Shown: positions 1,764 to 23,528, counted from the stretch's first letter. The stretch: DNA of 32,000 nucleotides from Candidatus Electrothrix sp. GW3-4 (GCF_037902255.1 NZ_CP147990.1:840001-872000); one strand, 5' to 3'. The notes: generated by a model from the sequence alone, not told the origin. Program-made: numbers and translations.

Positions 1764-2051
1764 ATGAACGATCTTGAGAAATTACGCGTAATGTTACCGC
1801 ACTGGATTGGTCATAACCAGGGGCATGGTGGAGAATTCGCGCAATGGGCGGAAAAAATAACAAGTGACTCTCCAGAGGTGGCCCAGCTGCTTCGTGATGC
1901 TGTCCAGTCTCTGCAAGAGGCCCAAAGCAGCCTTGAAGAGGCCCTGGAAAAGGCAGGCGGCCCTCTTGAGGAACCGGGTGGTCCGAGCGGTCACGGCACA
2001 CAGGGGCATGATCACAGTCATGAACACGGACATCATCACCAGCATTCATAG
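1764..2051 (+). CDS. Small helical protein with histidine-rich C-terminal tail (putative metal-binding)
   Basis: 95-aa ORF with GGAGG twice within 20 nt upstream of the ATG. The C-terminal tail GHGTQGHDHSHEHGHHHQHS has 9 His in its last 20 residues. It lies directly downstream of the CooT-like gene. Confidence 0.6.
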   Translation: MNDLEKLRVMLPHWIGHNQGHGGEFAQWAEKITSDSPEVAQLLRDAVQSLQEAQSSLEEALEKAGGPLEEPGGPSGHGTQGHDHSHEHGHHHQHS

Positions 2052-4451
2052 CTTTCCGTGATAAGGGCTCCACTTACCTGTTGATAAATTATATTGGTAG
2101 GTCAGCTCTAAGACGAGTCGAATGCCTTTGCGCTCTGTGCATCGTATGGTGTACAGCAGTCGGCCATTTTGGACCTTGATAAAATAGATCCTCGGGTTGC
2201 TCAGCAGGGCGTTGCGGGAAGAAGGAAATTCCTTTTTGAATATTCTCTCATAGTTCTTTTTCCACCATTCCTGATTGCTGCTTTTTGCCGCTGCAAGACT
2301 TTGTTCTTTAATTTTGGAGCGGACATACTGCTCCAGTTTTTTGAGATTGTTATCCTTGTCCACTTGAGAACTGTGGATGATGCCGAGTATTTTTTTGTAA
2401 TGTTTTAAGGAGACTTGTAGGTTGTTTTGATTCTCTGCCTCAACGGCTTTTCGGAGTTTAAGGCTGACGTTCAACATAACCACTGTTCGTCCTACCTTGA
2501 GAATGGCATCATTATATATTGCATTGAGATCCGAACGATTTTCTTCAAGCAGACGAAGGGCTCTCTGGTACTCGTTGATTGCGGCGACGAACTCACCTTC
2601 CTGGTAGGCTTGGCGAGCCACCTCAAGTTCTTGGTAAAGCCGCGAATAAGCGAGTGATGTTTTGATTTTTTCTTGTCTTTCCGGAAGGTTGATCTCTGGA
2701 TGCTTTCTGAGTTGTTCTTCAGCATCTTGTAAGCGTGCAACACATTCTCCCCAGAGATCGCCTGAGATAGGTTCTCCTTGTGTTCCAGAGGGATCGCTTT
2801 CTTTTTTTCTCAGGTCTTGACAGAAAGCAAAGGCGTCTCTGTACCTTTTTTCTGCATTTTCGCGTTCCCTGTTCCTCGCCTCTTGTCCAGCTTCTGCTTG
2901 GAATTCTTGTATTCTCTCTTGAATTATCTGGATTCGTTTGTCCAGTTCTGCCTTTGCTGTCTTGGCGTGGGGGTCTAAGGCCCTGGGTTGGGCTGTCTCA
3001 GTGAGTGAAAGTGCGTCTTGATACAAGGAAAGAGCCTTAGCGAATTTTTCTTTCTGAGCAGCATCAGCAGCTTCATTAATTTTTTTATCAACAGGCTCGA
3101 GTCGTTTGATGACCTGTGCCGGGAGAGAAATTCCCCTATATTCGACAGCACCAGCTTCTCCTTTCTTAAACTCAGGCGAGTTGAGGATATCGTAAATTTC
3201 CGCTTCCAGCTCCTTTTGGCCGAGACCGGGGAAGTGGGCCGACTTGAGATTGACCAGAAGCTTTTCGGCCTGGATTCGTTTTTGTTTGAATTGCTCCGGT
3301 GTGGTGCATGGCTGGTACTTGATTTCAATCCACCTGCGTTCTGCCTCTATCACCTTATCCATATCATGAGTGTATAGAAAGGTACCGCCGCCGACAGCTG
3401 CCAGGAGTACAAGCCCTATGAGGATCGGTTTGGTAGGGATCTCAATTGGAGGCTTGGTCGTCTTTCTTTCTCTCGGTTGTTTTTCTCTTGTTTTTTTAGT
3501 ATCTTTAGTGGTGTTTTTTTTCTTGTTTGCTGTTCTTTTTCCTTTGCTGGGCGCTGCGGATTTCTCTCCGTTCTCTGGCGTATCCGTATCCGGCAGAAGA
3601 AAGGTATCTAACATGGCCTGAGATTGCTGTAAACGTTGTCCAACATCGGACAGAGCTGGTGTGTCTATAGCAATTGCTCGTATTTCTTTAAAAATTTCAT
3701 AGGCTTCGGTGAATTTATCCTCGTTTTCCAACTCCTCCAGTTCTTGGAAGAGGTTGTCTCTTTTGGCAAGGGTGGAGGAAACGAGTTGTTCTAAGCGTTG
3801 CGCTTCTGGAGAAGACGAGGAGAGGGCTGTGAGGAGTTTTCCTGCGGTAACGATTTCGTTTTTGTCAATATGGTGCTGGATTTCCAGTAATTGTTCATCA
3901 ATATTCTCTTCCGGTACATCTATATCCAGGCTCAGGCCAAGATCGCTGTCTTCTTCTAGGGAGAGGTCGCTAACCTCAAAATCCGTATTACCTGTATCTC
4001 CTTGTTGGATTTCGTCCAAAGGAAACTCACTTGTATGTTCGCTATACCAATCCGCTGCTTCTTGATTGAATGGTTCCTCCAGGGTATATTTTTGGGCACA
4101 GATCATTTCTCCGATATGGAGAACAAGGTCTGCCAGCGAAGGGTTCTGTTGCCAGTACGAGGTAATGCGGACAGCATCTGGATCAATGTCAGGATGAAAA
4201 AGAGGGGTCAGTGGCTTGACCGTCGGTGGAAAGTGAGGATAACCGAACGGAAGATTAATACGGAGAAGATGGCGGTCAGCTTGGCCAATACTGCCGTCTG
4301 CTTGGCGTGTCAGGCCGTTGAGCTGGTACTCTACTTCATAGGTGGCAGGCGAGTCTCCTTCGGTTTGCGCCACACGTATTTGTGGGTACTGGGCCAGGAG
4401 TTGCTTGACTTCCTCGAAATCAAGCGCAAATTGGTCTGTTTCTGAGGCCAT
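2046..4451 (-). CDS. Single-pass membrane protein with N-terminal UBC/E2-like (UEV/RWD-type, no catalytic Cys) domain and long helical/TPR-like C-terminal region
   Basis: The long ORF runs 2046-4526. I prefer the ATG at 4451 (MASETDQF...), but 4526 is possible. The E2-fold signature LPFGYPHFPPTVKPLTPLFHPDIDPDAVRITSYWQQNPSLADLVLHIGEMI is present. It is followed by an acidic stretch, a K/T-rich basic stretch and a TM helix ILIGLVLLAAVGGGTFLY (about 3372-3428). The remaining ~430 aa are helical with TPR-like repeats (ALSLYQDALSL, AINEYQRALRLLE). Confidence 0.7.
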   Translation of the reverse strand: MASETDQFALDFEEVKQLLAQYPQIRVAQTEGDSPATYEVEYQLNGLTRQADGSIGQADRHLLRINLPFGYPHFPPTVKPLTPLFHPDIDPDAVRITSYWQQNPSLADLVLHIGEMICAQKYTLEEPFNQEAADWYSEHTSEFPLDEIQQGDTGNTDFEVSDLSLEEDSDLGLSLDIDVPEENIDEQLLEIQHHIDKNEIVTAGKLLTALSSSSPEAQRLEQLVSSTLAKRDNLFQELEELENEDKFTEAYEIFKEIRAIAIDTPALSDVGQRLQQSQAMLDTFLLPDTDTPENGEKSAAPSKGKRTANKKKNTTKDTKKTREKQPRERKTTKPPIEIPTKPILIGLVLLAAVGGGTFLYTHDMDKVIEAERRWIEIKYQPCTTPEQFKQKRIQAEKLLVNLKSAHFPGLGQKELEAEIYDILNSPEFKKGEAGAVEYRGISLPAQVIKRLEPVDKKINEAADAAQKEKFAKALSLYQDALSLTETAQPRALDPHAKTAKAELDKRIQIIQERIQEFQAEAGQEARNRERENAEKRYRDAFAFCQDLRKKESDPSGTQGEPISGDLWGECVARLQDAEEQLRKHPEINLPERQEKIKTSLAYSRLYQELEVARQAYQEGEFVAAINEYQRALRLLEENRSDLNAIYNDAILKVGRTVVMLNVSLKLRKAVEAENQNNLQVSLKHYKKILGIIHSSQVDKDNNLKKLEQYVRSKIKEQSLAAAKSSNQEWWKKNYERIFKKEFPSSRNALLSNPRIYFIKVQNGRLLYTIRCTERKGIRLVLELTYQYNLSTGKWSPYHGKL

Positions 4452-5006
4452 ATGTCCAAAGGAATGTGAAGTTGGGGTCGGGGTTATTACATACGAAACA
4501 GTATACGTCAGGTCTTGCCGGTGCAACGAACGGTGTGGTTTCTTCGTTATGCGGTACGAGAGACCCTGACTGTCCTGAGACCGGCAAAAGGTACAACCTT
4601 TTCTTGCAGAATGCGTACCAACTATTTTTTTGCAGAGTAATGCAAAAAGATATAAAAAATTATACGGTATTTTTTAGGTTCAAACAAGATCAATTCTTCT
4701 CCTTAATTATAAAAGGGTATTTGGTCATGCCGGGCAGGCTTTGTTGACCTGGAATCAGGCAGAGGTGCCGGAAACTTGTCATAAAACCTGACATGCGGCT
4801 GGTGAGTGAGTTGGGCAAAAGAGGGCACTGAATGTCGTAAAACGTCAGGAGGAGGGGGGAAAAGATGAAAGCAGAGCAACATTCTTGTCTGATAGCATGT
4901 TTCCGTGTACAATCTCTCTCTTTTTGTGGAACAGGAGATGACGCTGGTTGTTGGATGACAGTGAAGAACGCAAGACTACTTTATTCGGTGGAGTTTCTGA
5001 AAGAAC

Positions 5007-9503: not shown

Positions 9504-11855
9504 ATGAACCCTCTTGATCTTATCGGTAATACTCCTCTTGTCTCGTTGCAGAGAATGTGTCCTGCAGGCGCTGGAGAAATCTATGCGAAGCTGGAATGCA
9601 TGAATCCTGGTGGTTCGGTCAAAGACCGGCCAGCCTTGAACATGATTGAGGTGGGTGAGGAGAGTGGAGAACTGACACCAGATAAGATTATCCTGGAGGC
9701 CACCAGTGGCAATACCGGCATCGGCCTGGCTATGGTCTGTGCTGCCAAGGGATACCGTTGTCAGCTCATCATGCCGGAATCTGCCAGTATCGAACGACGA
9801 CAGATCATGCGGGCCTATGGGGCAGAGATTATCCTTACCCCGGCTGCCCGTTCCACAGACGGTGCTATTGAAAAGGCCTATGCCCTGGCCCGTGAATATC
9901 CTGACCGTTATTTTCTCACGGATCAATTTAATAATCCAGCCAACTGGCAGGCCCATTATCAGAGCACGGGCCCGGAGATCTGGGAGCAGACAGAGGGGAA
10001 AGTTACCGATATTATCACGACCTTGGGGACCTCAGGCACGGCTATGGGGCTCTCTCTCTGGTTTCGGGAACATCATCCCTCGGTGCGGGTCATAGCGGTG
10101 GAGCCCTACTTTGGTCATAAGATTCAGGGCTTGAAGAATATGAAAGAGTCCTATAAACCCGAGATTTTTGATAAGTATCTCCCCCATGAAGTTGTCAATG
10201 TCCAGGATGAGGACGCCTTTCGTACTGCCCGTTTGCTGGCTCGGCAAGAGGGGGTTTTTGTGGGGATGAGTTCCGGTGCTGCCATGTTTGCCGCGATGGA
10301 ACAGGCCGTGAAGGAGAAGGAGAGCTATGTGGTGGCTATCTTTCCAGACGGGGGGGAACGGTACCTGAGTACCCCGCTCTTTATTCGCAAGGAGAAACAG
10401 GAAGGCAAGGAGCGGCAACTCTGTCTGTACAATACCATCACTCGCAAGAAAGAAGCCTTTAAGCCGCTGCATGAGGGCAAGGTCACCTTTTATGCCTGCG
10501 GGCCTACCGCCTTTGAGGCACCTAACCTCTCTCATTGTCGCCGCTTGGTAGTTGCTGATCTGATGATCCGCTACCTTCAGTTCAAGGGCTTTGAGGTAGA
10601 ATCTATTATGAATTTTACCGACCTTGACGATAACACCATTGTCGGGGCAGAAAAGGCCGGTGAACCGCTGGCTGAATTTACGGATAAACATATCTCCCAG
10701 TTCCGTGAGGCGATCAATTTTCTCGGCATCAACGATTTCTCCGGTTATCCCAGGGCCTCGGAGCATGTTGGCGACATGATTGAAATCGCCCATGAGCTGA
10801 TCCACAAGGGCTTTGCCTATGAAAAACACGGATCAATCTATTTTGATATTTCCAAGTTCGGTAAATACGGGCAGCTCTCCGGGGTTGATCTGGGCAAGAT
10901 CCAGGTGGGACACACAGTGGACCTGGATGATTATGAAAAAGGGAATCCTCGAGATTTTACCTTACTGAAACGTTCTACTCTGGGTGAGTTGAAAAAAGGT
11001 GTTTTTTACGAGACAGACTGGGGTAATATCCGTCCGGGCTGGCATATTGAATGTACGGCCATGTCCACCCGGTATCTGGGCGAGACCATTGATATCCATA
11101 CCGGCGGGCAGGAACTGCTCTTTCCCCATCATGAAAATGAGAACGCTATTGCTGAGGCCCTGGCCGGAAAACCCCTGGCCAATTATTGGCTTCATTCAGG
11201 CTTGTTGCTCAAAGATGGCAAGAAAATGTCTGCGGAAGCAGGGAATGAGGTCACCCTCCAGGAGGCGATGGAGAAAGGGTATAGCGGGCGGGAAATCCGT
11301 TTTATGCTGCTTGGGGTCCATTACCGAAAATCCATGCATTTTACCTATAAAAAGCTCAATGCCATCCGCAAGGCCTTAAAGAGAATTGACGAGTTTACCC
11401 GAAAGCTGGGCTGCCTGCATCCAGGGCTCCCGCATCCGGTCATTGGCTCGTTGGTTGGGGAGCTGGAGAATCAAGTTACGAGTGCCTTAGATGATGACCT
11501 GAATATTTCCGGTGCAATTGGTGCGTTGTTTGATTTTATCAAAAAGGTCAATCCCATCCTCTACGCGGGCAGTCTGGATCTGGAGCAGAAAAATGAAATT
11601 TTTGCGCTCCTGCGAAAAATGAATCGGGTTTTCGGATTTCTCCGTTTAGAGCAATGTATCTTGGCCCCGGAAATCAACCGGCTGATTGAACAGCGGGAAG
11701 AGGCCCGTCGCCGTCGCGACTGGGCTGCTGCGGATATGGCCCGGACTGAGCTCCTGCAAAAGGGCATCATTGTCCATGATACGGCAAATGGGCCAGTTTG
11801 GGAGCAGGATGAGGCATGTAAGGTTTGTGAGAATGCCACTGGAAATGAACGTTGA
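9504..11855 (+). CDS. Fusion protein: PLP-dependent cysteine synthase (CysK/CysM-like, ~300 aa) + cysteinyl-tRNA synthetase-like domain (~480 aa)
   Basis: One uninterrupted frame. The track starts at TTG 9489; ATG 9504 is more likely. The N-terminal part has NPGGSVKDRPA (PLP lysine), TSGNTGIGLA and LGTSGTAMG. After the linker RKEKQEGKERQ the sequence is collinear with E. coli CysRS (LYNTITRKKEAFKP, ACGPT, GWHIECTAM, HTGGQELLFPHHENENA, RRRRDWAAADMAR..GIIVHDT). Confidence 0.85.
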   Translation: MNPLDLIGNTPLVSLQRMCPAGAGEIYAKLECMNPGGSVKDRPALNMIEVGEESGELTPDKIILEATSGNTGIGLAMVCAAKGYRCQLIMPESASIERRQIMRAYGAEIILTPAARSTDGAIEKAYALAREYPDRYFLTDQFNNPANWQAHYQSTGPEIWEQTEGKVTDIITTLGTSGTAMGLSLWFREHHPSVRVIAVEPYFGHKIQGLKNMKESYKPEIFDKYLPHEVVNVQDEDAFRTARLLARQEGVFVGMSSGAAMFAAMEQAVKEKESYVVAIFPDGGERYLSTPLFIRKEKQEGKERQLCLYNTITRKKEAFKPLHEGKVTFYACGPTAFEAPNLSHCRRLVVADLMIRYLQFKGFEVESIMNFTDLDDNTIVGAEKAGEPLAEFTDKHISQFREAINFLGINDFSGYPRASEHVGDMIEIAHELIHKGFAYEKHGSIYFDISKFGKYGQLSGVDLGKIQVGHTVDLDDYEKGNPRDFTLLKRSTLGELKKGVFYETDWGNIRPGWHIECTAMSTRYLGETIDIHTGGQELLFPHHENENAIAEALAGKPLANYWLHSGLLLKDGKKMSAEAGNEVTLQEAMEKGYSGREIRFMLLGVHYRKSMHFTYKKLNAIRKALKRIDEFTRKLGCLHPGLPHPVIGSLVGELENQVTSALDDDLNISGAIGALFDFIKKVNPILYAGSLDLEQKNEIFALLRKMNRVFGFLRLEQCILAPEINRLIEQREEARRRRDWAAADMARTELLQKGIIVHDTANGPVWEQDEACKVCENATGNER

Positions 11856-11918
11856 TTTATCTTTCGTTCCGCAGTATAATATTGCAGCTTTCTTGGAGAG
11901 CAGAATGATGAAGTATAT

Positions 11919-11995
11919 GCGCCAATAGCTCAGCTGGATAGAGCAACGGCCTTCTAAGCCGTAGGTCGCAGGTTCGAATCCTGCTTGGCGTACCA
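11919..11995 (+). tRNA. tRNA-Arg (anticodon UCU), encoded CCA
   Basis: Hand-folded cloverleaf. Acceptor GCGCCAA/TTGGCGT has a G1-U72 wobble. D arm GCTC-AGCTGGATA-GAGC; anticodon arm ACGGC-CTTCTAA-GCCGT with TCT at positions 34-36; T arm GCAGG-TTCGAAT-CCTGC. Discriminator is A, followed by CCA. Confidence 0.9.
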
Positions 11996-12012
11996 TATAT
12001 ATCAGGGAGTTA
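11945..12012 (+). repeat. attL: tRNA 3' half plus about 17 nt flank
   Basis: aacggccttctaagccgtaggtcgcaggttcgaatcctgcttggcgtacca is identical to 27470-27520. Similarity continues through tatatat..caggg[a/g]gtta. Confidence 0.85.
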
Positions 12013-12039
12013 AGCTGTACAGCTTGACTCCCTGTTTTT
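12003..12039 (+). terminator. Rho-independent terminator after tRNA-Arg (island-supplied)
   Basis: 14-bp stem cagggagttaagct / agcttgactccctg (one G-U pair), loop gtac, then TTTTT. Confidence 0.75.
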
Positions 12040-12262
12040 GTTTCCCCAGCACTATCCCCAGCAGATGAACGGATTTTCGGTTTATCTGTCCCAGCAGAGC
12101 AAAGCGCAAACCACCCGAAAATTTTTTTCGGGGTACTTTTCAGTTTTCTTTTTTCGGGAGAACAACAGCCGTGAAAAAGGCTACCTGTCGTTATGTGAGG
12201 GGCTGACTTTCAGGCAGGGAGAGGGGAAACACAGAAAGCGAGCTGATAGCGTGCGGATTGCG

Positions 12263-12766
12263 TCATTCTCCGTTCCGGGTTTCTTCCAGAACAAAGCGAA
12301 CGTCCAGGTTTTTCAGCATGGTGAAACAGTCGGTATAATCGACCTCAAATTCATGGCAGACATTGGGGATGAGGATTTTTCTCTTTGCCTGCGGGTTGTA
12401 TGCCTCATGGGTTACAACAATACATCCGTGGACTTTGGCAAAGGCTATCAGCCACGGGTCGGCCCCTGAAAGGAAATGTTCAGCTACGCGCTGACTGTGA
12501 TTCTCCACCGCATAGCTGGCAATTGATCTGAAGATTTCCTGAACAGTGGGTTCCGTCACCTCGGCAAAGAAATGAGAGCCTTTTATCTCTTCAGCCCAAT
12601 CTTTCAATTCATCGTTGCCGTTCTGAAGCTCTTCCAGAACAGGAGAAATAGAACCCACTGTCCCGACCCGAAAGACAAGCCAGTCCCAGAAACCGGGGCA
12701 GATAGAAAAATGGTAGTGAGCATTTTTGGCCTGAATAAATACGTTGCTGTCCAGACAGTAATCCAT
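12263..12766 (-). CDS. DUF4411-family (PIN-like) protein
   Basis: 167 aa, MDYCLDSNVFIQAKNAHY... The acidic-residue pattern and length are as I recall for DUF4411. The start lies 1 nt after the stop of the upstream ImmA/IrrE gene, which is the usual partner. Confidence 0.7.
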   Translation of the reverse strand: MDYCLDSNVFIQAKNAHYHFSICPGFWDWLVFRVGTVGSISPVLEELQNGNDELKDWAEEIKGSHFFAEVTEPTVQEIFRSIASYAVENHSQRVAEHFLSGADPWLIAFAKVHGCIVVTHEAYNPQAKRKILIPNVCHEFEVDYTDCFTMLKNLDVRFVLEETRNGE

Positions 12767-12767
12767 A

Positions 12768-13943
12768 TTATTTTCCTGTCAGAAAGTCCGCATATTGTTT
12801 CAGGCCAGCCGGTTTGACCCCCAGCAGAGAACCGGCATCCCGCAACAGCAGTCTTCCTTCAAGGGCCGCAGCCGCCACAGCTTGGGAAAACAGGTTGCCG
12901 TTTCTGAACTTGCGCATGGTGTCGGACTTGGGGCCGCCTGCACTTTCAGCTAATTTATTTTTCTTCTTTTGGTCATAGTGGACAGCCTGCCAATAAAAAT
13001 CCTGCAACGTATCATAGGGCAACACGTCCAGATCGTATCCACGCCGGGCAATAACCAACTGACTGACCCGGTACTGTTGAGCAAGCAGGGCAATATTGTC
13101 CTGTGCCGGAATCTCGCTGTTCCAATCAGTCAGAAATTGCGCTTCAGGAACCAGCACCTCCGCAGCCGTCCTGTTGCAGAAGGTTTCCACCTTCTTTCCA
13201 CGTTTGCCTTTTTTCTCTTTATTCAGCTGAGGGTTGGAAACTCCGCTCTGTCCGATCCAGAGATGAACCAGCTCATGGGCAAGGGTGAAGATTTGCGCGG
13301 ATTTGGCATCACGGGAATTGATAAAGATGAGCGGTGCCACCGGGTCGCTGAGGGCAAAGCCCCGGAACTCATCAACGGACAGCGGGCGGTGGGTGTTGTT
13401 GCCGACAATGGAATTGCGCATGACAAGGATACCGGCATCCTCGGCCTGTTCAATCAGGCAGGTGATGAACTGTTCCCAATTTCGGGCGGAACTGCGGACC
13501 TCATCCACAGACAGCACCTGCCGTATATCCGCTGCTACCACCCGGTAATCATCTGTTACGGAGTAGTTGCCGATAAAGGGCAGCGGCTGTACTCCCTCCT
13601 GCATACGGTATTCCCGGAACCAGTCCTGTTTCCGCAGAATATCGTTGTACAGATCAAGAAATTCAAGGCTGAAACCGGGCATGGTTCTGCTGCCAACAGT
13701 CCGCAGGTCGGGTATATCCGGTTCCTGTTTCGGCGGGGCAGGCAGAAAGAAGTACCCAAACGGCACATGGAATGCCTTGGCAAGGAGTTGCGCCTGTCGG
13801 AAGGTCGGTCTTTTTTGGCCTTCCTCCCAAGCAAGGAACTGCTCTGGACGCACCTTTACCTTATGCGCAGCAGCATCCGTGCTGAACTGCGCCCGTTTTC
13901 TTGCCCAACTGAGCACATGCGGGGTAATAAAGGCTTCAGGCAT
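12768..13943 (-). CDS. XRE-HTH + ImmA/IrrE-family zinc metallopeptidase
   Basis: 391 aa. It has an N-terminal HTH (RPTFRQAQLLAKAFHVPFGYFFL) and a central HEXXH motif (LAHELVHLWIG) in an ImmA/IrrE-like context. Confidence 0.8.
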   Translation of the reverse strand: MPEAFITPHVLSWARKRAQFSTDAAAHKVKVRPEQFLAWEEGQKRPTFRQAQLLAKAFHVPFGYFFLPAPPKQEPDIPDLRTVGSRTMPGFSLEFLDLYNDILRKQDWFREYRMQEGVQPLPFIGNYSVTDDYRVVAADIRQVLSVDEVRSSARNWEQFITCLIEQAEDAGILVMRNSIVGNNTHRPLSVDEFRGFALSDPVAPLIFINSRDAKSAQIFTLAHELVHLWIGQSGVSNPQLNKEKKGKRGKKVETFCNRTAAEVLVPEAQFLTDWNSEIPAQDNIALLAQQYRVSQLVIARRGYDLDVLPYDTLQDFYWQAVHYDQKKKNKLAESAGGPKSDTMRKFRNGNLFSQAVAAAALEGRLLLRDAGSLLGVKPAGLKQYADFLTGK

Positions 13944-14090
13944 GGTGTATCAACCTGTTCGTATTTTTTGCGGGTTTTGTCGTGTCACACAAATATACTA
14001 CCCGATTTTGCATGATATGGAAACGGGGTTCACTGTGAGGAAGGTATTCTTTTGCGCTGTGTTACAACGGATCATCCGGGCACCGGGTCG

Positions 14091-14258
14091 CTGAAGAAAC
14101 GCTTCAGCTCCACCTGTGCCTGTCCTCATGTATACAAAAAGCTGTTTTCCTATACACGGCAACCTGTTCATGTATAGAAAAACGCATTTTCTTTACATGT
14201 ACCGCATCCGAGCGGAACTGCCCAAGCTGTACAGTCAGGATTTATTGAACAATCTCTT
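14091..14258 (+). repeat. Copy of non-coding junction + start of Fic C-terminal fragment (partner 27667-27834)
   Basis: 168 nt align colinearly with 27667-27834 at roughly 85-90% identity by eye, including ...catgtatac..cctatacac..catgtatag.. and ..gcggaactgcccaagctgtacagtcaggattta.tgaacaa. Confidence 0.8.
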
Positions 14259-14279
14259 GCCCGAAGTATACTCCACACC

Positions 14280-14720
14280 GGGGCCAAGGCTGACCGCCCC
14301 GGCCTGACTGATGCCTTAAAATACGTCCGTGAAGGGGATTGCCTCGTTGTCTGGCGGCTGGATCGTTTGGGCCGCAGCCTGAAGCATCTGATTGAAGTTG
14401 TGGAAGGCTTAGAAGAGCAGGGAACAGGCTTTATCAGCCTTCAGGAAGGATTCGACACCACCACCAGCGGCGGCAGGCTGGTCTTTCAGATCTTCGGGGC
14501 CTTGGCTGAATTTGAAAGAAACCTGATCCGGGAAAGGACAAAAGCCGGGCTGGATGCGGCCAGGGCCAGAGGGAGGAAGGGCGGCAGAAAGGTGAAGCTG
14601 AAGCCTCAGCAGATTGCCGCCCTGAAAACTATGTATGAGAGTAAGGCGCATACTGTTGATGAGGTATGCGCTGTGTTTGGGATTAGTAAGCCGACTTTGT
14701 ATCGGTATTTGGAGATGTAG
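14280..14720 (+). pseudogene. Serine recombinase (Hin/resolvase family) remnant R1, lacking N-terminal catalytic-Ser region
   Basis: The in-frame translation GAKADRPGLTDALKYVREGDCLVVWRLDRLGRS...FGALAEFERNLIRERTKAGL...HTVDEVCAVFGISKPTLYRYLEM* matches residues ~60 to the end of small serine recombinases. The sequence upstream is the Fic fragment, so there is no N-terminus. Confidence 0.8.
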
Positions 14721-14723
14721 GGT

Positions 14724-15002
14724 TCACGCAACAGCCAGCCGGCACCCCAACGCCTTGACCACTTTGCTGACCGTAGAGAATCTCGGGTTACCTTCCCCGG
14801 CAAGGGCTTTATACAGGCTTTCACGGTTCAGCCCGGCCTTTTTGGCTACCTCGGTCATACCCTGTTTTTTGGCCAGATACCCCAAGGCGACAAGAAAAAC
14901 CTTGGGATCATCATCCATATAGGCGTTGTTCAGGTACTCGTTGACCTCTTCTCTTGTTTCCAGATAGTCGAACGGGTTGTAGGGTTTTGTTGTAAGTTTC
15001 AT
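14724..15002 (-). CDS. HigA-family antitoxin (addiction module antidote protein)
   Basis: 92 aa. FDYLETREEVNEYLNNAY.., GMTEVAKKAGLNRESLYKALAGEGNPRFSTV..KALG is the typical family pattern. It overlaps the upstream toxin gene by 4 nt. Confidence 0.8.
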   Translation of the reverse strand: MKLTTKPYNPFDYLETREEVNEYLNNAYMDDDPKVFLVALGYLAKKQGMTEVAKKAGLNRESLYKALAGEGNPRFSTVSKVVKALGCRLAVA

Positions 15003-15307
15003 GACTCTTCTTCCCCCAGTTGTTTGACCATGTTTTTTGCCTTTTTTATGTCCCTTTCCTGGGTCGATTTATTACCGCCGCAGAGCAGGAGGATAATCCG
15101 ACCGTCCTGGATCACGTAATACAGGCGATAACCCGGCCCGACAAAGATACGCATCTCGCTGATTTCGCCGCCGACCGACTTAACATCGCCGAAGTTGCCC
15201 AGCTTTGCCCGGTCGAGACGAGCGGCCACGGCGAGTACCGCTTTGCGGTCACGCAGTTTCTTCAGCCACTTGTCGAAAGCGGGCGTGGTTTCTATTTCGT
15301 AGATCAG
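14999..15307 (-). CDS. HigB/RelE-like addiction module killer protein (start codon uncertain or lost)
   Basis: Family homology extends upstream of the track's GTG (15229): ..LIYEIETTPAFDKWLKKLRDRKAVLAVAARLDRAKLGNFGDVKSVGGEISEMRI.VGPGYRLYY. Only CTG (15307) or ATC (15304) sit where the ATG is expected, and an in-frame stop lies at 15338-15340. Confidence 0.6.
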   Translation of the reverse strand: MIYEIETTPAFDKWLKKLRDRKAVLAVAARLDRAKLGNFGDVKSVGGEISEMRIFVGPGYRLYYVIQDGRIILLLCGGNKSTQERDIKKAKNMVKQLGEEES

Positions 15308-15383
15308 GGGTATTTGTAGCCTGTGAGCTACGGTTTGTCAAGGGGAAGGGAATGTTTGTTGATTGATCGGAGTGGGGCGGGTT

Positions 15384-15627
15384 GATCTTCGGGGCATTGG
15401 CTGAGTTTGAACGGAATCTGATCCGGGAGCGGACAAAGGCCGGGCTGGAAGCAGCCAGGGCCAGAGGGAGGAAAGGCGGCAGAAAGGTGAAACTGAAGCC
15501 TCAGCAAATCGCCGCCCTAAAAACTATGTATGAGAGTAAGGCGCACACTGTTGAGGAGGTATGCGCTGTGTTCGGGGTTAGTAAGCCGACATTATATAGC
15601 TATTTAAAAACTCAGAAAATTGAGTAA
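15384..15627 (+). pseudogene. Serine recombinase remnant R2 (C-terminal about 80 aa incl. HTH)
   Basis: IFGALAEFERNLIRERTKAGLEAARARGRKGGRKVKLKPQQIAALKTMYESKAHTVEEVCAVFGVSKPTLYSYLKTQKIE*. It aligns with R1 from 14497 on, at about one nt difference in ten. Confidence 0.8.
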
Positions 15628-15652
15628 AACTATACAAAATATAAGGCTTCTT

Positions 15653-16243
15653 TTATTCATTAGGACATTCATCCGAAGCCGCACTACATAACCCTGTTGT
15701 GCGGCTACAGAATTTATCATCCCAATTATAGCAAGCATCACTTCCATTTGGGCCAGCATCTTTCTTACAACATCTTCCATTAGAAAATTTAATACCATGT
15801 TCCTTTAGTATTAATTTCGCTGCTGCTATATCTTTCATCGTTATAACTTTTTCTTTTTTATCTTTTGTTGAAATTTTTATTTTTTCAGACGAATTAGATG
15901 GTTTCGGGATCTTCATTGCTATAGATAAAAGTTCCAGTGAATCTTTCAATTCACTATTACCTACAATCTTCTCGTCTTCATACCACCTACAATGTAGATG
16001 CCCTTCACATACTGTTTGATTCTTAATATCACTACATTTATTTGCCGTTCCATAACATCCATCAACTACACCGCTACTAGATGAAACATAGGTGCATCCA
16101 CTTTGTTTTATACATTGATCATAATTAGAAATATCTCTGCAAGACAAATTCCACCCCGCACATTCACCCGCAAAAACAAAAGATGGGGTTACAAAAAAAT
16201 AACACAGTATCATTCCAACTAAATATGTTTTTTTCATTTTCAT
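15653..16243 (-). CDS. Secreted cysteine-rich protein A (unknown function)
   Basis: 196-aa ORF in an AT-rich segment. AGGAG lies just upstream, and spacing favours ATG 16237. Signal peptide (MK)MKKTYLVGMILCYFFVTPSFVFA. The mature part has 14 Cys in two clusters separated by a K/S-rich linker. Confidence 0.65.
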   Translation of the reverse strand: MKMKKTYLVGMILCYFFVTPSFVFAGECAGWNLSCRDISNYDQCIKQSGCTYVSSSSGVVDGCYGTANKCSDIKNQTVCEGHLHCRWYEDEKIVGNSELKDSLELLSIAMKIPKPSNSSEKIKISTKDKKEKVITMKDIAAAKLILKEHGIKFSNGRCCKKDAGPNGSDACYNWDDKFCSRTTGLCSAASDECPNE

Positions 16244-16336
16244 CTCCTATTATTAATATAAAATTAATTACCGTTTGTCCTATACACAGATTACCCTTAT
16301 GGGGTAACAATAATGCAATGGTATTCGAAGCACATC

Positions 16337-16696
16337 CTATAAAGTTTTTCGGACGATTAATGGATAATCACTCGAAAAATCAGATATACCTCCGCATGAT
16401 GCACTTGGGGATGAATCGCAAGTAAAATTACAAGCTTCCCCTGTTAAAGAACAACATGCTGAAGCAGCCTCCCCAGTCTCATTATTTCTAATAATACAAA
16501 GTCTGTCTCCAGAACAGGATGGGTCTCCACTTGCACTAACATATGTGGTACATTTATCAATAAATGATGACTTAAAAGATACTGTTTTTTCTACCTTATC
16601 CGATTGTTTTTCTTTGTTTTGTGCCGCTGCTAAATGATTTGAAAGGAAAAAAGCAAAAACAAAACAAACCATTACTCTTGTAACATTTTTTTTCAT
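16337..16696 (-). CDS. Secreted cysteine-rich protein B (unknown function, paralogous motif to protein A)
   Basis: The start at 16696 is preceded by GGGAGGGG. Signal peptide MKKNVTRVMVCFVFAFFLSNHLAAA. The mature part has 8 Cys. It shares C-T-(T)-Y-V-S-[SA]-S-G and a CC doublet with protein A. Confidence 0.65.
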   Translation of the reverse strand: MKKNVTRVMVCFVFAFFLSNHLAAAQNKEKQSDKVEKTVSFKSSFIDKCTTYVSASGDPSCSGDRLCIIRNNETGEAASACCSLTGEACNFTCDSSPSASCGGISDFSSDYPLIVRKTL

Positions 16697-16854
16697 ATCC
16701 CCTCCCTTGTTTATTTTTTTACAATTCATTTTCTACACTAGGTCATAAGTATATCAGTAATTTTTTTTTGTCAACGTATTATAACTATTGATAATAATTA
16801 ACACTCCCATTTTAAAAGAAATAACGAAAAACAGAAATCGTTATTTCGTTCCCC

Positions 16855-16996
16855 CCTGATCCGGGAACGGACAAAGGCCGGGCTGGAAGCGGCCAGGGCC
16901 AGAGGGAGGAAGGGCGGCAGAAAGCTGAAGCTGAAACCTCAGCAAATTGCCGCCCTGAAAACCATGTACGAGAGCAAGGCGCATACTGTTGAGGAG
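16855..16996 (+). pseudogene. Serine recombinase remnant R3 (internal fragment)
   Basis: LIRERTKAGLEAARARGRKGGRKLKLKPQQIAALKTMYESKAHTVEE. It is truncated at both ends and finishes 6 nt before the hsdR stop codon. Confidence 0.8.
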
Positions 16997-17002
16997 TTCA
17001 GC

Positions 17003-20000
17003 TCACCCCGCAGCAGTCAACTCATCAGCGATTTTTTCCGCCTGTTGCAGCACGGTTTCCGTGGCCAGTTTCTGCATATCAGGCGGGTAGCCGTATTTTC
17101 GCAAGGTGCGCTTGACCAGTACCTTGAGCTTTGCCCGCACATCCTCTTTGATGGTCCAGTCAATAGAGGCATTAGCCCGGACCTTCTCGGTCAGCACCAC
17201 GGCCAGTTCCCGCAGTGTGTCTTTCTTCATCAGCTCAACCGCGCTTTCATTATTTGCCACTGCGGTATAGAAGGCATATTCAAAGTCGGTCAGGCCCATG
17301 TTCTCGGCTTCCTGATCCTTTGCTTTCATATCTCTGCCAATGTTTATCAGCTCTTCAATCACTTCAGCAGCAGTAATGATTTTATTATGATAGCGTTTAA
17401 TGGAGTCTTCAAGCATCTCCATCAGGCTGTTGCTCTGGACCAGGTTTTTTTTGGCCCGGGCCCGGATTTCATCGTTGAGCAGCTTTTTCAGGACTTCCAG
17501 GGCAATATTTTTATGTTCCATCTCCCGGATTTCCAGCAGGAATTCTTCGGAAAGAATGGAAATATCCGGTTTCTTTATTCCGGCTGCATCAAAAATATCT
17601 ATCATCTGATGGGAAACAAGGGCCTGGTCAATGACCTGCCGGATCACCGCTTCCCGTTCCTCATCGGTCCGGCCTTGGTCTGTAGCGGAAAACTTGGCCA
17701 GCCGGGCCTTGATGGCCTGGAAAAAGGCCACCTCATCCTTGCAATCCAGGGCCTGTTCATGGGGAACAGCAAGGGCAAAGGCCTTGGACAGGGCCGCGAC
17801 TTCATCCATGAATCGTTTTTTGCCGTTTTCCAGGTGCAGGATAAAATCTTCCGCTGCCAGGATCAGGGAAAGCTTTTGTGAGGTGTCAGCGGCAAAGTAT
17901 TCCTCATAGGCAAAGCCGTGCAGCATCTGGGAGACGATTTCCAGTTTCTCCAGGAGCAGAGCAACGGCCTGTTCCTGCTCAACTGCCGGATCCCCCTTGC
18001 CGCCGCTGTCCGCATAAAAGGACAGGGCCTTTTTCAGATCCGAGGCAATGCCCAGGTAATCCACCACCAGGCCGCCCGGTTTATCCCCATAGACCCTGTT
18101 CACCCGTGCAATGGCCTGCATCAGGTTATGGCCCTTCATGGGCTTATCAATGTACAGGGTATGGAGGCAGGGCGCATCAAAGCCGGTCAGCCACATATCC
18201 CGGACAATAACCAGCTGTAAGGGATCATCAGGATTGCGCATCCGTTCTGCCAAGGCCCGCCGTTGTTGCTTGGTGGTGTGGTGCCTGGCTATCTCCTCCC
18301 CGTCTGAAGAGGCTGCGGTCATCACCACCTTGATGGTTCCCTTTTTCAGGTCGTCATGGTGCCAGTCCGGTTGCAGGGCGATGATTTCCCGGTACAGATC
18401 CGCAGCGATCCTGCGGGACATGGCTACAATCATACCCTTGCCCTGAAAGACCTCCTGCCGCTGCCCGAAATGGCGGACAAGATCCTGAGCAACATTTTTC
18501 ACCCGTTCCCGGCTGCCGATCAGGGCTTCAAGCTGGGTCCATTTGGCCTTGGCTTTCTGGGTTTCAGAAAGGTCTTCCCGGTCCAGTTCATCATCCAGTT
18601 CCTGAACAAGCTCCCGGCCTTCTTCGCTCAGGGTGATCCTGGCCAGCCTGCTTTCATAGAGGATCGGGACCGTGCTGCCGTCCTCAATGGCCTGGGCAAT
18701 ATCATAGATGTCCACATACTCCCCGAAAACAGCCGGGGTGTTCACGTCGCTGCTTTCAATGGGGGTACCGGTAAAGCCCAGATAGGTGGCCTTGGGCAGG
18801 GCGTCCCGCATGTACTTGGCAAAGCCGTACACCGTCTTTTTGCCGATGATTTGCCCCTGTTCGTCCTTGTCATCAATGGTCTTGGCCTGAAAGCCGTATT
18901 GGGTCCGGTGAGCCTCATCAGCAATGACCACAATGTTTTCCCGGTCAGAAAGCTGCTCATAGACATTGCCCTGTTCCGGCTGAAACTTCTGGATCGTGGT
19001 AAAGACCACCCCGCCGGAGGCCACCTGCAACAGGGCTTTCAGGTGCTGCCGGTCTTTGGCCTGGACAGGTTCCTGGCGGATCAGCTGTTTTGCAGCGGCA
19101 AAGGTATCAAAGAGCTGGTCGTCTAGGTCGTTTCTGTCCGTGATAACCACCACCGTGGGATTGTGCAGGGCAAGGACAAGTTTTCCCGTGTAAAAGACCA
19201 TGCTCAACGATTTACCGCTGCCCTGGGTATGCCAGACCACCCCGCCCTTTCTGCTGCCGTTGCTTGCACTGGCTTTAATCGTACTTTCAACCGCTTTATT
19301 GACCGCATAATACTGATGATAAGCAGCCAGCTTTTTCACCGTTTGGATACTGGTTAACCCGGTTTTGGGGTCTTCACTCTTGGACTGCTCAAAGACGATG
19401 AAATGGCGGATCAAATCCAGCAGAGTTTTCCGGTTCAGCATGCCGGTAATCAGGGTTTCCAGCTGGCTGATTAAGGGAGAGGCCTCGGTTTTGCCGTCTG
19501 CGCTCTTCCAGGTCATAAAACGGCTCAAGCCTGCGGACAGGGAACCGGCCCGTGCTTCCAGGCCGTCAGAGATGATCAGGATTGCGTTATAGGTGAACAG
19601 GGAAGGGAGCGTTTTTTTATAGGTGCCGAGCTGACGAAAGGCAGATTCAATGGTGGCCTGTTCATCAGTGGGATTCTTCAATTCAACGACCACCAAGGGC
19701 AGACCGTTGACAAAAAGGACAAGATCCGGGCGTTTTTCTTTGTTCTTTTCTGTGGCTGTGAACTGGTTGACCACGAAAAATTCGTTATTTTCCGGCTTGT
19801 CAAAATCAACCAGCCAGATGATTTCGCCCCGGTCAATGCCCTCCTTGCGCACGGTCACCTTGACCCCTTCAGTCAGCAGGCTGTGAAATTCTTTGTTGTT
19901 GCTGATCAGGTCCGGGGAATGGATGCGCTCAACCTGGTTGAATGCGTCTTCTTGGGCGTTGTGGGGGATGTCCGGGTTCAGGCGGCTGATTGCTGAACGA

Positions 20001-20143
20001 AGGGTTGCCGCCAGCAGGTATTCATCAAAGCTGTTGCGGAGGGGAGTTTTACCGTTCGGGGCAATGTTCGGGCCGTAGAAGTATTGATAGCCCAGGGGCT
20101 GAAAGCGTTCTATGGCGAGCTGTTCTATTTCTTCTTCAGTCAT
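17003..20143 (-). CDS. hsdR: Type I restriction enzyme, R subunit
   Basis: 1046 aa with Walker A HTQGSGKS, DEAH box VIADEAHRTQ, helicase C motifs (FTGTP, QAIARVNR) and a typical HsdR N-terminal nuclease region. It overlaps hsdS by 8 nt. Confidence 0.95.
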   Translation of the reverse strand: MTEEEIEQLAIERFQPLGYQYFYGPNIAPNGKTPLRNSFDEYLLAATLRSAISRLNPDIPHNAQEDAFNQVERIHSPDLISNNKEFHSLLTEGVKVTVRKEGIDRGEIIWLVDFDKPENNEFFVVNQFTATEKNKEKRPDLVLFVNGLPLVVVELKNPTDEQATIESAFRQLGTYKKTLPSLFTYNAILIISDGLEARAGSLSAGLSRFMTWKSADGKTEASPLISQLETLITGMLNRKTLLDLIRHFIVFEQSKSEDPKTGLTSIQTVKKLAAYHQYYAVNKAVESTIKASASNGSRKGGVVWHTQGSGKSLSMVFYTGKLVLALHNPTVVVITDRNDLDDQLFDTFAAAKQLIRQEPVQAKDRQHLKALLQVASGGVVFTTIQKFQPEQGNVYEQLSDRENIVVIADEAHRTQYGFQAKTIDDKDEQGQIIGKKTVYGFAKYMRDALPKATYLGFTGTPIESSDVNTPAVFGEYVDIYDIAQAIEDGSTVPILYESRLARITLSEEGRELVQELDDELDREDLSETQKAKAKWTQLEALIGSRERVKNVAQDLVRHFGQRQEVFQGKGMIVAMSRRIAADLYREIIALQPDWHHDDLKKGTIKVVMTAASSDGEEIARHHTTKQQRRALAERMRNPDDPLQLVIVRDMWLTGFDAPCLHTLYIDKPMKGHNLMQAIARVNRVYGDKPGGLVVDYLGIASDLKKALSFYADSGGKGDPAVEQEQAVALLLEKLEIVSQMLHGFAYEEYFAADTSQKLSLILAAEDFILHLENGKKRFMDEVAALSKAFALAVPHEQALDCKDEVAFFQAIKARLAKFSATDQGRTDEEREAVIRQVIDQALVSHQMIDIFDAAGIKKPDISILSEEFLLEIREMEHKNIALEVLKKLLNDEIRARAKKNLVQSNSLMEMLEDSIKRYHNKIITAAEVIEELINIGRDMKAKDQEAENMGLTDFEYAFYTAVANNESAVELMKKDTLRELAVVLTEKVRANASIDWTIKEDVRAKLKVLVKRTLRKYGYPPDMQKLATETVLQQAEKIADELTAAG

Positions 20144-21242
20144 AGCGTACTCTTACCTCTCCGCTCATGAGTTTGGGAAGTAGGGTATTGCGGAGGTTTT
20201 CGAGGGTGCGGATTTGTGCGGCATTATTTAGAATCTTGAAAAAAATTGGAGAAATTTCTTTCTCAAAATTTATAATCTCTTTTTCTAACGGGACAGTTAC
20301 AGAGTGTTCTTTGAATGTTTTGGTCGTGATAGTGTCAAAAACACTGCCATATGCCGCGCTGATGAGTTGGTCCACAACATTTGCCACAAGCAGGTATGTA
20401 AAAAAATAACAGTCCTGATACTCGGGAATGATTCCGTAATTTGATTGGCTGAAAGCCATATTCTCCGCCAAAATAGCATATTTTCCAACAGTGCCTCTTG
20501 CGGAAATGATCGTGCTGAATTGAGGCAAAATTTTTGTTGAGCTGTTGTTTAACCCTTCAGTTGTTATTGTTTTTTCTGTCGATAAAACAATACTTTTGTG
20601 ATTAGGCGTTATATCTTTTGCTGAAAGCCAGCCTATATCACCATTCCAGTATTCATCAATAGACGTTTTCGGAGTCCCGCCGCCTATCAGCTTGATGCAG
20701 TCGTATAAGGATTTTTCCTCCCAATCATCCTCCGCCTCTTCAATAAACCACTGCCTGAACAGCGTTTCCGCCATTGCCTCAAGGGTTTTATTCTGGCGGT
20801 GGAGCAGGTCTATTTTGTCATCAAGACAGGATAGAGTCGAAGCTATGGCTTTTTGTTCGGGGAGCGAAGGAAGTAAAACATTTTCTTCATGAACATCATT
20901 TCGATTTATACCTGGAACCGCGCTTTTATCATTAAATTTTTCCCAATTTATCCCCTGAAGAAAATAATAAACAAAGAACTCGTTGTTATTTTTAAAATTT
21001 TCAACATACAATGTCGTATTAAGCGGCCAGTAGGCTTGCTGGGCTAAAAAAACTTTTCCTATTGTTCCATAGCGACCGGTTATAACACCAACACCTTCTA
21101 CTTTTGACTTATTGTGGAATCCTGAAATTCCCGATGATGAAAAAATTGGAATATCTCCATTCTTTCTTAGTCGTTTTGGTAAATCGTAACCACGTTTTAA
21201 GTTTAACACTTCCCCGAGCTTACATTCCTTCCACTCACCCAT
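20136..21242 (-). CDS. hsdS: Type I restriction enzyme, S (specificity) subunit
   Basis: Two target-recognition domains are separated by the conserved spacer [15 protein letters not shown], with a C-terminal [17 protein letters not shown]. The start [12 protein letters not shown] at 21242 overlaps the hsdM stop. Confidence 0.9.
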
Positions 21243-22779: not shown

Positions 22780-23033
22780 GTGGATATGGTTTCCCGGTTC
22801 TATGCTCTCCGGGAACGGTATTTTTATATGAATGTTTGTGGTATGGGAAAGTATCCTACGGTCTTAGCATAGCAGGAGGAAAGGTGCAATATGTTCAGCA
22901 GGAGAATTCTACAGAAGCTTTTTTTTGAGCTATAAAGTTTCCATAGTCTCCCAGCAGCTTTTCAGAGGCTCCTGGAAAAGTTTGAAAGAATCATACGGGT
23001 GTCTGAGCAGTGATAAACGATTCCAACATATTA

Positions 23034-23084
23034 CAAACCCACAGGGGGGTGGGTTTGCCCGTGGGTTTGCCTGTGGGTTTTCCC
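23034..23084. repeat. GTGGGTTT repeat array (1 inverted + 3 direct at 12-bp period)
   Basis: aaacccac (23035-23042), then gtgggtttgcc at 23049, 23061 and 23073 (the last reads gtgggttttcc). It lies 255-305 nt upstream of the hsdM ATG. Confidence 0.7.
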
Positions 23085-23252
23085 GTTTGACAAGGGATTA
23101 TACCTGACAACCAGGGTATATCAGGCGGGTGTTTCGCTGTCTCCGGCCAGCCGCTCCGCCTTGATCCTTTGCCATTTCCCCCAGCTCTCCGGGCTGCTGA
23201 CCGGGCGGGTTCAACTTGCCCCGGTCACCGGAAACAATCTCCCGTATTTCTT

Positions 23253-23528
23253 TCACACAACCTCAATACGAAGCGTTTTCCCGAACGCCTGCGCAAACTT
23301 CGCCAGCGTGGACAGCTTCACATCCTGTGCATGGTTTTCAATCCGGGAGACAGCGGTTTTCTTGGTATGCATCTTTTCCGCTACCTGCTCCTGTGTCATC
23401 CCGGCTTCTTCCCTTGCCGCTTTGAGCATGGCCCCTATTTTGAAGTCCTGATACCCGGCTTCATAGCCCTCTGCAAATTCAGGGTCACGGGCCTTGCGTT
23501 CCTTGATGTAGGTCTGTAATTTTTTCAT
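23253..23528 (-). CDS. XRE-family HTH antitoxin (HigA-like)
   Basis: 91 aa. HTH GMTQEQVAEKMHTKKTAVSRIEN. It overlaps the upstream toxin gene by 4 nt. Confidence 0.8.
   Translation of the reverse strand: MKKLQTYIKERKARDPEFAEGYEAGYQDFKIGAMLKAAREEAGMTQEQVAEKMHTKKTAVSRIENHAQDVKLSTLAKFAQAFGKTLRIEVV

Follow-up and report, generated by a model that had tools for sequence, protein, structure and literature searches.

The window that we analysed is the whole stretch of 32,000 nucleotides at NZ_CP147990.1:840001-872000 from Candidatus Electrothrix sp. GW3-4 (GCF_037902255.1), and the gene discussed here is an open reading frame (ORF) at 9504..11855 on the plus strand. It encodes 783 amino acids plus a stop, made up of a CysM-like cysteine synthase domain, a linker and a module that resembles cysteinyl-tRNA synthetase (CysRS), and it is a 100% match to the protein cluster P0001. 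An earlier note on this DNA had described an in-frame fusion of a cysteine synthase to a CysRS whose class I signature motifs are degenerate. We found one uninterrupted ORF, in a single frame and with no stops or frameshifts, and every short string that the note had quoted lies where the note placed it (SVKDR, SGNTG at residue 68, ACGPT at 331, GWHIEC at 512, FPHHENE at 540, NLSH, NTIV and KMSAE). There is an alternative upstream start, a TTG at 9489 in the same frame as the ATG at 9504, and we chose the ATG because the N-termini of the orthologues read MNxLxLIGNTPL.

Pfam places PALP at residues 5-282, tRNA-synt_1e at 319-620, DALR_2 at 658-713 and CysS_C at 720-761. The Rossmann catalytic, DALR and CysS_C anticodon-binding domains follow each other in the canonical CysRS order, and this part of the protein aligns from end to end with the structures 1li5 and 8qhp. 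The fusion protein scores 394 bits with the NCBIfam cysS model TIGR00435, for which the cut-off is 340. The linker (residues 294-305, IRKEKQEGKERQ; 10383..10418, +) is 12 residues long and poorly conserved, and the tether from the CysM domain to the N-terminus of the Rossmann fold comes to only 8-14 residues. More than 120 protein clusters and 67 species genomes have the same junction, which is therefore no artefact of sequencing or assembly.

The first half of the protein is a CysM-type cysteine synthase domain of fold type II (residues 1-293; 9504..10382, +; PF00291, 3e-74), dependent on pyridoxal phosphate (PLP), with its catalytic motifs intact. These are the PLP Schiff-base lysine, Lys40, in S-V-K-D-R (9621..9623, +), the TSGNTG carboxylate loop and the GTSGT glycine-rich phosphate loop. 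The domain aligns without gaps to CysM of E. coli and Salmonella (2v03, 2bhs), the short CysM-type loop included. It passes the cysKM model TIGR01136 (370 bits, cut-off 344) and stays below the CysM equivalog cut-offs of TIGR01138 and NF008735 (359 vs 394 and 338 vs 413). The note had called this domain complete-looking, and the PLP lysine, the TSGNTG loop and the TIGR01136 score bear this out. With every catalytic motif and the short loop in place, it resembles CysM, or O-acetylserine (or O-phosphoserine) sulfhydrylase B. It differs from CysM in being a subfamily of its own, with a conserved GHKIQGLKNMKE loop and a CysRS-like partner that is always present; the CysM partners throughout the clade described below have this subfamily-specific loop, GHKIQGLKN(M/L)KE, in common.

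For the second half, we placed the motifs with HMMER, which aligned each residue to those of E. coli CysRS (1li5) and of 8qhp. The CysRS-like Rossmann fold with its connective-peptide (CP) insertion spans residues 306-620 (10419..11363, +; PF01406, 5.7e-89). Its zinc and cysteine pocket is intact: the first ligand is Cys332 (10497..10499, +), which corresponds to E. coli C28, and the remaining ligands, all on the same strand, are C517 (11052-11054), H542 (11127-11129) and E546 (11139-11141), which match E. coli C209, H234 and E238. W513, the equivalent of E. coli W205, is also kept. The DALR_2 helical and C-terminal CysS_C anticodon-binding part takes up residues 621-783 (RRRRDWAAADMAR...; 11364..11852, +; PF09190 2e-09, PF23493 2.1e-08) and retains R731, R735, D744, R747, G754, D759 and G763. 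The note had read both the pocket and the anticodon domain as retained, and both are present.

The catalytic signatures are changed. The HIGH position reads N-L-S-H (residues 341-344, E. coli 37-40; 10524..10535, +), the KIIK position reads N-T-I-V (residues 377-380, E. coli 73-76; 10632..10643, +), and the KMSKS position, in a loop that is variable within the family, reads K-M-S-A-E (residues 574-578, E. coli 266-270; 11223..11237, +). The alignment confirms the degenerate state that had been claimed for all three, and it showed no canonical motif displaced elsewhere. Four lysines of E. coli CysRS, K73, K76, K266 and K269, have been implicated in a persulfide synthase activity (PMC5660078). 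Three of the four are absent here (N377, V380, A577) and K574 is kept, in line with what the note had said of these lysines; with one of four left, we rejected a CARS-type persulfide synthase that uses PLP on the KIIK and KMSK lysines.

A search of a 5.8-billion-protein collection gave at least 120 full-length fusions that are 69-89% identical. Those with named hosts are all from Desulfobulbaceae (Candidatus Electrothrix, Candidatus Electronema, Desulfobulbus and Desulfolithobacter), and the source annotation of the orthologues is 'cysteine--tRNA ligase'. Across 120 orthologues the HIGH position is mostly N-[LIM]-[ASG]-H. The first residue is Asn in 112 sequences, with 7 His and a single Asp among the others, and all 120 have the fourth His. 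The family consensus is N-L-A-H, and NxxH holds in 112/120. The KIIK position reads NTIx; Cys332 and SGNTG are present in 120/120, CGPT never varies, and GWHIEC and FPHHENE hardly do. The KMSKS position reads KM[SA]xx, and the fourth-position Lys is absent in the 12 commonest variants, which make up 98 of the 120.

Mean column conservation is 0.86 in the CysM part, 0.84 in the CysRS-like catalytic part and 0.44 in the linker. Positions 576-579 of the KMSKS loop, at about 0.3-0.5, are among the lowest stretches of the catalytic domain. Measured against nine orthologues, the nonsynonymous rate (dN) is 0.12-0.21 in both halves and the synonymous rate (dS) is saturated, so that their ratio, omega, is at most about 0.09, and omega of the CysRS-like part equals that of the CysM part. 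Because omega is this low and the motif is conserved in the orthologues, the altered HIGH reads as a new fixed state and the whole protein as one under purifying selection, with a relaxed KMSKS loop. An artefact or a decaying pseudogene, be it a chimeric assembly or the remnant of a dead CysRS on cysM, would account for the degenerate motifs and nothing else. It is refuted by conservation, and the shared junction, the low omega and the conserved state of the altered motifs leave it hardly any probability.

We also searched with the CysRS part against one representative per 50% cluster of 15 billion proteins and aligned the best 150. Among these, 116 are canonical (H-x-G-H/N and KMSKS), and 92 positions are conserved at 85% or more among the 116. 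The Desulfobulbaceae fusion family keeps 77 of the 92 and has changed 15. In the signatures, these are both variable signature positions of HIGH, two of KMSKS, and K73. In the core, the DIHGGG turn has two of its glycines changed, the CP1 GAR motif its Arg and DFxLWK its Trp, and the Gln that follows HHENE is replaced too; the rest are, by their canonical residues, V336, V368, T419, W502 and G509. The core replacements in the window protein are I549 (Gln241), T471, L488 and N377 (K73); its GGG turn reads TGG, and the turn is TAS in most orthologues. Among the canonical representatives, the first His of HIGH is conserved at 100%, the Gly at 99% and the second KMSKS Lys at 100%. Only the first K of KIIK is conserved (91%), and the commonest canonical form of the HIGH position is HIGN, not HIGH.

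About 13-15 of the representatives share most of these substitutions, namely T471, L/F/M488, usually I/M/V549 and mostly an extra Arg347. The earlier note had suggested a phylogeny, and in a simple neighbour-joining tree on the MAFFT alignment, with a midpoint root, the CysRS module of the fusion falls in a deep clade apart from the 116 canonical sequences. We call this one group clade X, a label coined here. It lies on the opposite side of the midpoint root from every canonical sequence, and its defining residues, with few exceptions, are R347, T471, L/F/M488 and I/M/V/L549. Arg347 (10542..10544, +) is an additional arginine, peculiar to the clade, that directly follows the HIGH helix and is found in 67/67 clade members vs 0/9 canonical loci; canonical CysRS has T/A/S/P there. 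Thr471 (10914..10916, +) takes the place of an Arg (E. coli R168) in the GAR motif of CP1; this Arg is seen in 0/67 clade members and 91% of canonical CysRS. The CP1 residues mutated by Mukai et al. (n=4) are treated there as the element that reads the first acceptor base pair (PMC5389517). Mapped by structure alignment, the Thr471 position adjoins these four residues.

Besides the Desulfobulbaceae proteins, the fusions of clade X are P0121, P0130 and P0122, the last of which is a truncated form of the 782-aa P0271, and the clade also includes stand-alone CysRS-like proteins. Both of the stand-alone genes that we checked lie 2-4 nt downstream of a CysM-like gene of about 300 aa and form a split pair with it. 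In these split forms, the end of the CysM gene and the start of the CysRS-like gene coincide with the linker position of the fusion. The clade X module always has a CysM partner, either fused to it or encoded by the gene immediately upstream. In one split form (L008, 4209-7293), the order is a CysM-like gene, a CysRS-like gene and a ThiF/MoeB-like E1 gene. This arrangement recalls cysteine synthesis that depends on a sulfur carrier (CysO-thiocarboxylate); the other inspected loci are without it, and save for this ThiF neighbour we saw no conserved partner other than CysM in them.

A CysM-like domain is also fused to a fully canonical CysRS (HIGN, KMSKS) in P0129, a 768-aa protein from a Nanoarchaeota metagenome-assembled genome (MAG), and in L078, from a Minisyncoccales MAG. 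At the clade-diagnostic sites these have the canonical R and Q, and the third site is W in P0129 and F in L078. In the tree P0129 falls among the canonical CysRS, so the fusion either has more than one origin or is older than the divergence of clade X.

In a scan of one genome per GTDB species, we recovered the ORF in 76 of the 80 loci listed. The sequences are mostly from MAGs, and the counts that follow are of the members covering each position. Among the matches listed, at least 67 of the 76 loci with an ORF are clade X members, at 44-83% identity. They come from Desulfobulbaceae, Desulfocapsaceae (Desulforhopalus, Desulfofustis, Desulfopila), Desulfurivibrio and Dissulfuribacterales, and also from Desulfobacterales (Desulfobacterium sp., Desulfatibacillum sp.), all of them Thermodesulfobacteriota. 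In the window the fusion gene is followed by a tRNA-Arg(UCU) gene (11919..11995, +). The same tRNA-Arg(UCU) is the downstream neighbour in 23 loci of Desulfobulbaceae and Desulfocapsaceae, as a rule no more than about 130 nt from the fusion. We take it purely as a synteny marker, which shows the locus to be orthologous throughout the order Desulfobulbales.

The note had proposed checking whether fusion and motif loss occur together across taxa, and what we see is a graded loss. In L043, L088 and P0121, the HIGH position is HLGN and the KMSKS position KMSRS, with the zinc site intact. Desulfobulbaceae have NLAH and KMSxE, also with an intact zinc site. Desulfocapsaceae at the same tRNA-Arg-flanked locus have NLSL and NMSSD, and the zinc site is still intact. 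In several Desulfobacterales, HIGH reads e.g. HLGE, QLSE or TLNE, KMSKS is replaced or deleted, and the zinc site is broken (WHIKS, WHLQT; C28 to D). A near-complete catalytic set is found in 2 of the 67 clade members, and the second KMSKS Lys in 2/67. The zinc site is broken in 14 of 68 wider clade members, a total that counts in the window protein, whose own site is intact.

The PLP lysine is kept in 64/64 members, and SGNTG is found in all 64. The anticodon domain is nearly as constant, with R731 in 62/62, R735 in 60/62, D744 in 62/63, R747 in 64/64 and D759 in 62/63, and the 14 members with a broken zinc site still keep the arginines and aspartates of this domain at 86-93%. Judging by these alignments, the constants of the clade are an active-looking CysM and an anticodon-binding CysRS scaffold, and the adenylation machinery appears to be dispensable. 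We also scored three degenerate relatives (L024, L051, L068) with TIGR00435. A Desulforhopalus form in which both His and both Lys are gone reaches 390 bits, a Desulfobacterales form whose zinc Cys is gone reaches 353 bits, and the Desulfatibacillum form, the most degenerate tested, has 237 bits and falls under the cut-off of 340. Degenerate members pass this model, and therefore the 394 bits of the window protein are uninformative on activity.

The reading that we favour, and to which we give about an even chance, is that the CysRS-like module has lost the ability to charge tRNA or retains very little of it, and that it binds cysteine and/or tRNA-Cys and couples the cysteine synthase to their status. 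The CysM domain would make cysteine from activated serine and reduced sulfur. The tethered CysRS paralogue would have given up tRNA charging largely or wholly, losing the residues of the ATP transition state (first HIGH His, second KMSKS Lys, GGG turn and the Gln after HHENE) and changing the CP1 motif implicated in acceptor-stem reading, and it would still have its zinc-thiolate pocket for cysteine and the domain that binds the tRNA-Cys anticodon. Such a module could bind cysteine and/or tRNA-Cys without efficient adenylation and serve as a sensor or docking unit for cysteine or tRNA-Cys status, and a separate canonical cysS outside the window would supply the housekeeping Cys-tRNA-Cys. From sequence comparison we infer that adenylation is lost, that the module binds a ligand or tRNA and has a regulatory coupling to the synthase, and that a second cysS exists. 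Selection in the order does not seem to need canonical adenylation chemistry, because the syntenic Desulfocapsaceae read NLSL and NMSSD.

The protein could instead be a bifunctional enzyme in which CysM makes cysteine and tRNA-Cys is charged by a divergent but compensated CysRS domain, which might even be the sole CysRS that Desulfobulbaceae have. Asn341 and His344 together with Arg347 would then stand in for the lost His and Lys. We consider this possible but somewhat doubtful, and several results lean toward it and weigh against a pseudo-synthetase. The window protein keeps its four zinc ligands, W513, K574-M575, the anticodon domain and 77 of the 92 canonical positions, and it is under strong purifying selection. 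Its altered HIGH is itself strongly conserved, and one His and one Asn are also found, in the opposite order, in canonical HIGN enzymes. The invariant R347 could compensate for the lost lysine. The gene stands alone in housekeeping-like contexts that vary by genus, as a gene for an aminoacyl-tRNA synthetase (aaRS) might, and the TIGR00435 score is above the cut-off, although a pass does not discriminate. The basal members L043, L088 and P0121 (HLGN/KMSRS) look catalytically competent. These near-canonical members, and the independent fusions to canonical CysRS in DPANN and candidate phyla radiation (CPR) genomes, the Nanoarchaeota and Minisyncoccales MAGs, show that the architecture is workable and that a working bifunctional enzyme is viable. 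Active class I enzymes also exist without the second Lys or the first His, such as eukaryotic TrpRS (KMSAS), TyrRS (KMSSS) and bacterial TrpRS (TIGN).

What makes us doubt the bifunctional enzyme is that the syntenic Desulfocapsaceae are without both His and both Lys and that others are without zinc ligands, so that the lineage must have obtained Cys-tRNA in some other way. Within the family the KMSKS loop varies, and there are further changes at the GGG turn, at Q549 and W488 and at the CP1 Arg. The interpretation in the earlier note fared unevenly on this evidence. Its anatomy of the protein stands, and its idea of a sensor fits better than its idea that new cysteine is channelled to an altered but working synthetase. 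The latter is weakened because relatives have lost both His, both Lys and some zinc ligands, and have kept the PLP site and the anticodon residues.

The pseudo-synthetase that we favour needs another cysS in these genomes. Hosts of members without zinc ligands, HIGH His or KMSKS Lys need another source of Cys-tRNA, because such members cannot be CysRS. Asn at the first HIGH position and loss of the second Lys are common to Desulfobulbaceae and the syntenic Desulfocapsaceae, so the changes probably predate the split of the families. It would be most parsimonious for a canonical cysS to have coexisted with the fusion in the ancestor of Desulfobulbaceae and Desulfocapsaceae, and we think it likely that there is one elsewhere in the Electrothrix genome. 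Two negative results weigh against this, and they also speak for the bifunctional enzyme. With tblastn, the only cysS in the 32-kb window and in the fetched loci (about 10 kb of flanks around the matches) was the fusion, and among the P0169 and P0226 family matches no canonical CysRS shares a contig or assembly with a fusion. The canonical CysRS of P0169 is from Syntrophales, and that of P0226 is from another Desulfobacterota group.

The canonical cysS of the P0226 family usually sits in a (PIN/TRAM)-ispD-ispF-cysS-uvrB arrangement (L092-L095, L097, L098, L100, L101). The ispD-ispF-cysS-uvrB order is a useful anchor for locating the housekeeping cysS in genomes that have the fusion. In PLSDB we found no fusion. 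The PLSDB record with a 96% query match is an Acetoanaerobium noterae chromosome filed as a plasmid, with an ordinary cysK-cysE-cysS operon and canonical motifs. One further canonical CysRS (HIGH/KMSKS), P0168, is 711 aa long, comes from a 167-kb ENA contig, has an N-terminal extension of about 216 residues and is 50% identical to P0169.

The constancy of the anticodon residues while the adenylation motifs decay is also what one would expect if the pseudo-CysRS docked Sep-, Ser- or Cys-tRNA-Cys and the PLP domain carried out beta-replacement on the tRNA-bound residue. The product would be Cys-tRNA-Cys or a persulfide, and SepCysS would not be used. A beta-replacement PLP enzyme tethered by 8-14 residues to the Rossmann N-terminus and a remodelled CP1 acceptor-stem motif would suit this as well. 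However, the TSGNTG loop, which binds the alpha-carboxylate, is invariant, and in CysK and CysM this loop implies a free amino-acid substrate and not an ester on A76. Moreover, none of the inspected loci showed a SepRS or another mischarging enzyme in the vicinity of the gene, and surveys of SepRS and SepCysS make no mention of Desulfobulbaceae. We think such tRNA-dependent chemistry improbable. We put the more general idea of a tRNA-Cys docking platform, in which the PLP enzyme is either gated by uncharged tRNA as a protein-level sensor or acts on seryl- or phosphoseryl-tRNA without SepCysS, equally low.

The non-canonical cysteine ligase that the note had offered as an alternative did not hold up. 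An ATP-dependent ligase like MshC would put fresh cysteine onto a small-molecule acceptor to give a low-molecular-weight thiol; MshC is a known CysRS paralogue, and the cysteine pocket is kept here. MshC of M. smegmatis keeps HLGH and KMSKS and has no anticodon domain, which is the reverse of the fusion protein. The fusion scores 193 bits with TIGR03447, where the cut-off is 485, the ligase would require adenylation, for which the ATP motifs are missing, and the inspected loci showed neither glycosyltransferase nor deacetylase genes as neighbours. With the anticodon domain present in addition, we regard an MshC-type ligase as largely refuted and very unlikely.

We compared the module with known systems. 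It is like canonical CysS (EC 6.1.1.16; E. coli 1li5/1u0b) in domain order, the four zinc ligands, the W205 equivalent, FPHHENE and an identity of about 37-40%. It differs from it in NLSH, KMSAE, N for K73, TGG, Thr in CP1, Leu for Trp, Ile for Gln241 and the extra Arg347, in being fused to CysM, and in its separate deep clade. HisZ, a paralogue of HisRS that has no adenylation activity, is the protein through which histidine controls HisG (PMC9437257). The likeness, which is a functional analogy and not homology, is that both have lost adenylation motifs, kept an amino-acid pocket and are tied to the cognate biosynthetic enzyme. HisZ differs in being class II, a separate subunit and without an anticodon-binding role, whereas the fusion is class I, usually fused, and has its anticodon residues as the most constant part. 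By this analogy, we would describe the module as aaRS-derived, non-catalytic and attached to a cognate biosynthetic enzyme.

The HisRS-like domain of GCN2, the eukaryotic sensor of uncharged tRNA, is a pseudo-synthetase that binds tRNA without catalysis and is fused to a kinase. The fusion described here is likewise a pseudo-synthetase, in our reading, on an effector enzyme, with predicted tRNA binding, although GCN2 is eukaryotic, has a kinase as its effector and is broad in its tRNA specificity. We know of no bacterial metabolic-enzyme equivalent of GCN2.

A 2022 review of aaRS duplications has MshC and CysRS* as the only CysRS paralogues (PMC9437257). CysRS* is specific for SelC*, occurs in Desulfobacterales, has no anticodon-binding domain and is encoded downstream of selC*/selB* (PMC5389517). 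The fusion module shares with CysRS* a derivation from CysRS, an occurrence in Desulfobacterales and changes in CP1. CysRS* and MshC are both catalytic, whereas the fusion has an anticodon domain, no longer has the ATP motifs and is linked to CysM. We rejected an identity with CysRS*, given the anticodon domain and the absence of a selB-like neighbour. Full-text searches of the literature gave no description of a cysteine synthase-CysRS fusion, and the family in these sulfur-cycling bacteria is apparently undescribed and labelled as ordinary cysS in databases.

If the favoured reading is correct, MshC and CysRS* would be joined by a third type of CysRS paralogue, present across a Thermodesulfobacteriota clade that includes cable bacteria. 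It would be the class I equivalent of HisZ for cysteine, and it might also be a bacterial protein that senses tRNA charging and acts on a metabolic enzyme. Since TIGR00435 is passed without signatures or a zinc ligand, such proteins are automatically named cysteine--tRNA ligase, which may distort counts of single-copy markers and metabolic reconstructions. The natural series from HLGN/KMSRS to complete loss offers a ready panel with which to ask what class I signature residues an enzyme can do without.

The neighbours of the fusion gene in the window are TolC and the tRNA-Arg, with no selB-like gene. In the loci that we inspected, there is no tRNA-Cys beside the fusion gene; the tRNA neighbour is tRNA-Arg(UCU). 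A good sigma-70-like promoter match (TTGATT-17-TATAAT, 11852-11880) overlaps the stop codon of the fusion and lies just upstream of the tRNA-Arg, and a terminator-like hairpin with a 14-bp stem and a T-run (12003-12034) follows it. The tRNA-Arg may have its own transcription unit.

There is a perfect 58-bp direct repeat at 11945-12002 and 27470-27527 that consists of the 3' 51 nt of the tRNA-Arg(UCU) plus 7 nt. The second copy is just beyond a tyrosine integrase gene (26166-27311, -). The repeats bound an island of about 15.5 kb (about 12003-27527) integrated at the tRNA-Arg. It has a type I restriction-modification system (hsdR 17003-20143, hsdS 20136-21272, hsdM 21235-22779), a DUF4411 and IrrE/M78 pair, a resolvase fragment, a Gp49/HigB-like gene and a stretch of low guanine-cytosine content at 16-17 kb. 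Elsewhere in the window, an 826-aa ORF (2046-4526, -) has a weak match to the E2 ubiquitin-conjugating family UQ_con at residues 77-168 and no other Pfam match, and it may be a bacterial E2-like protein.

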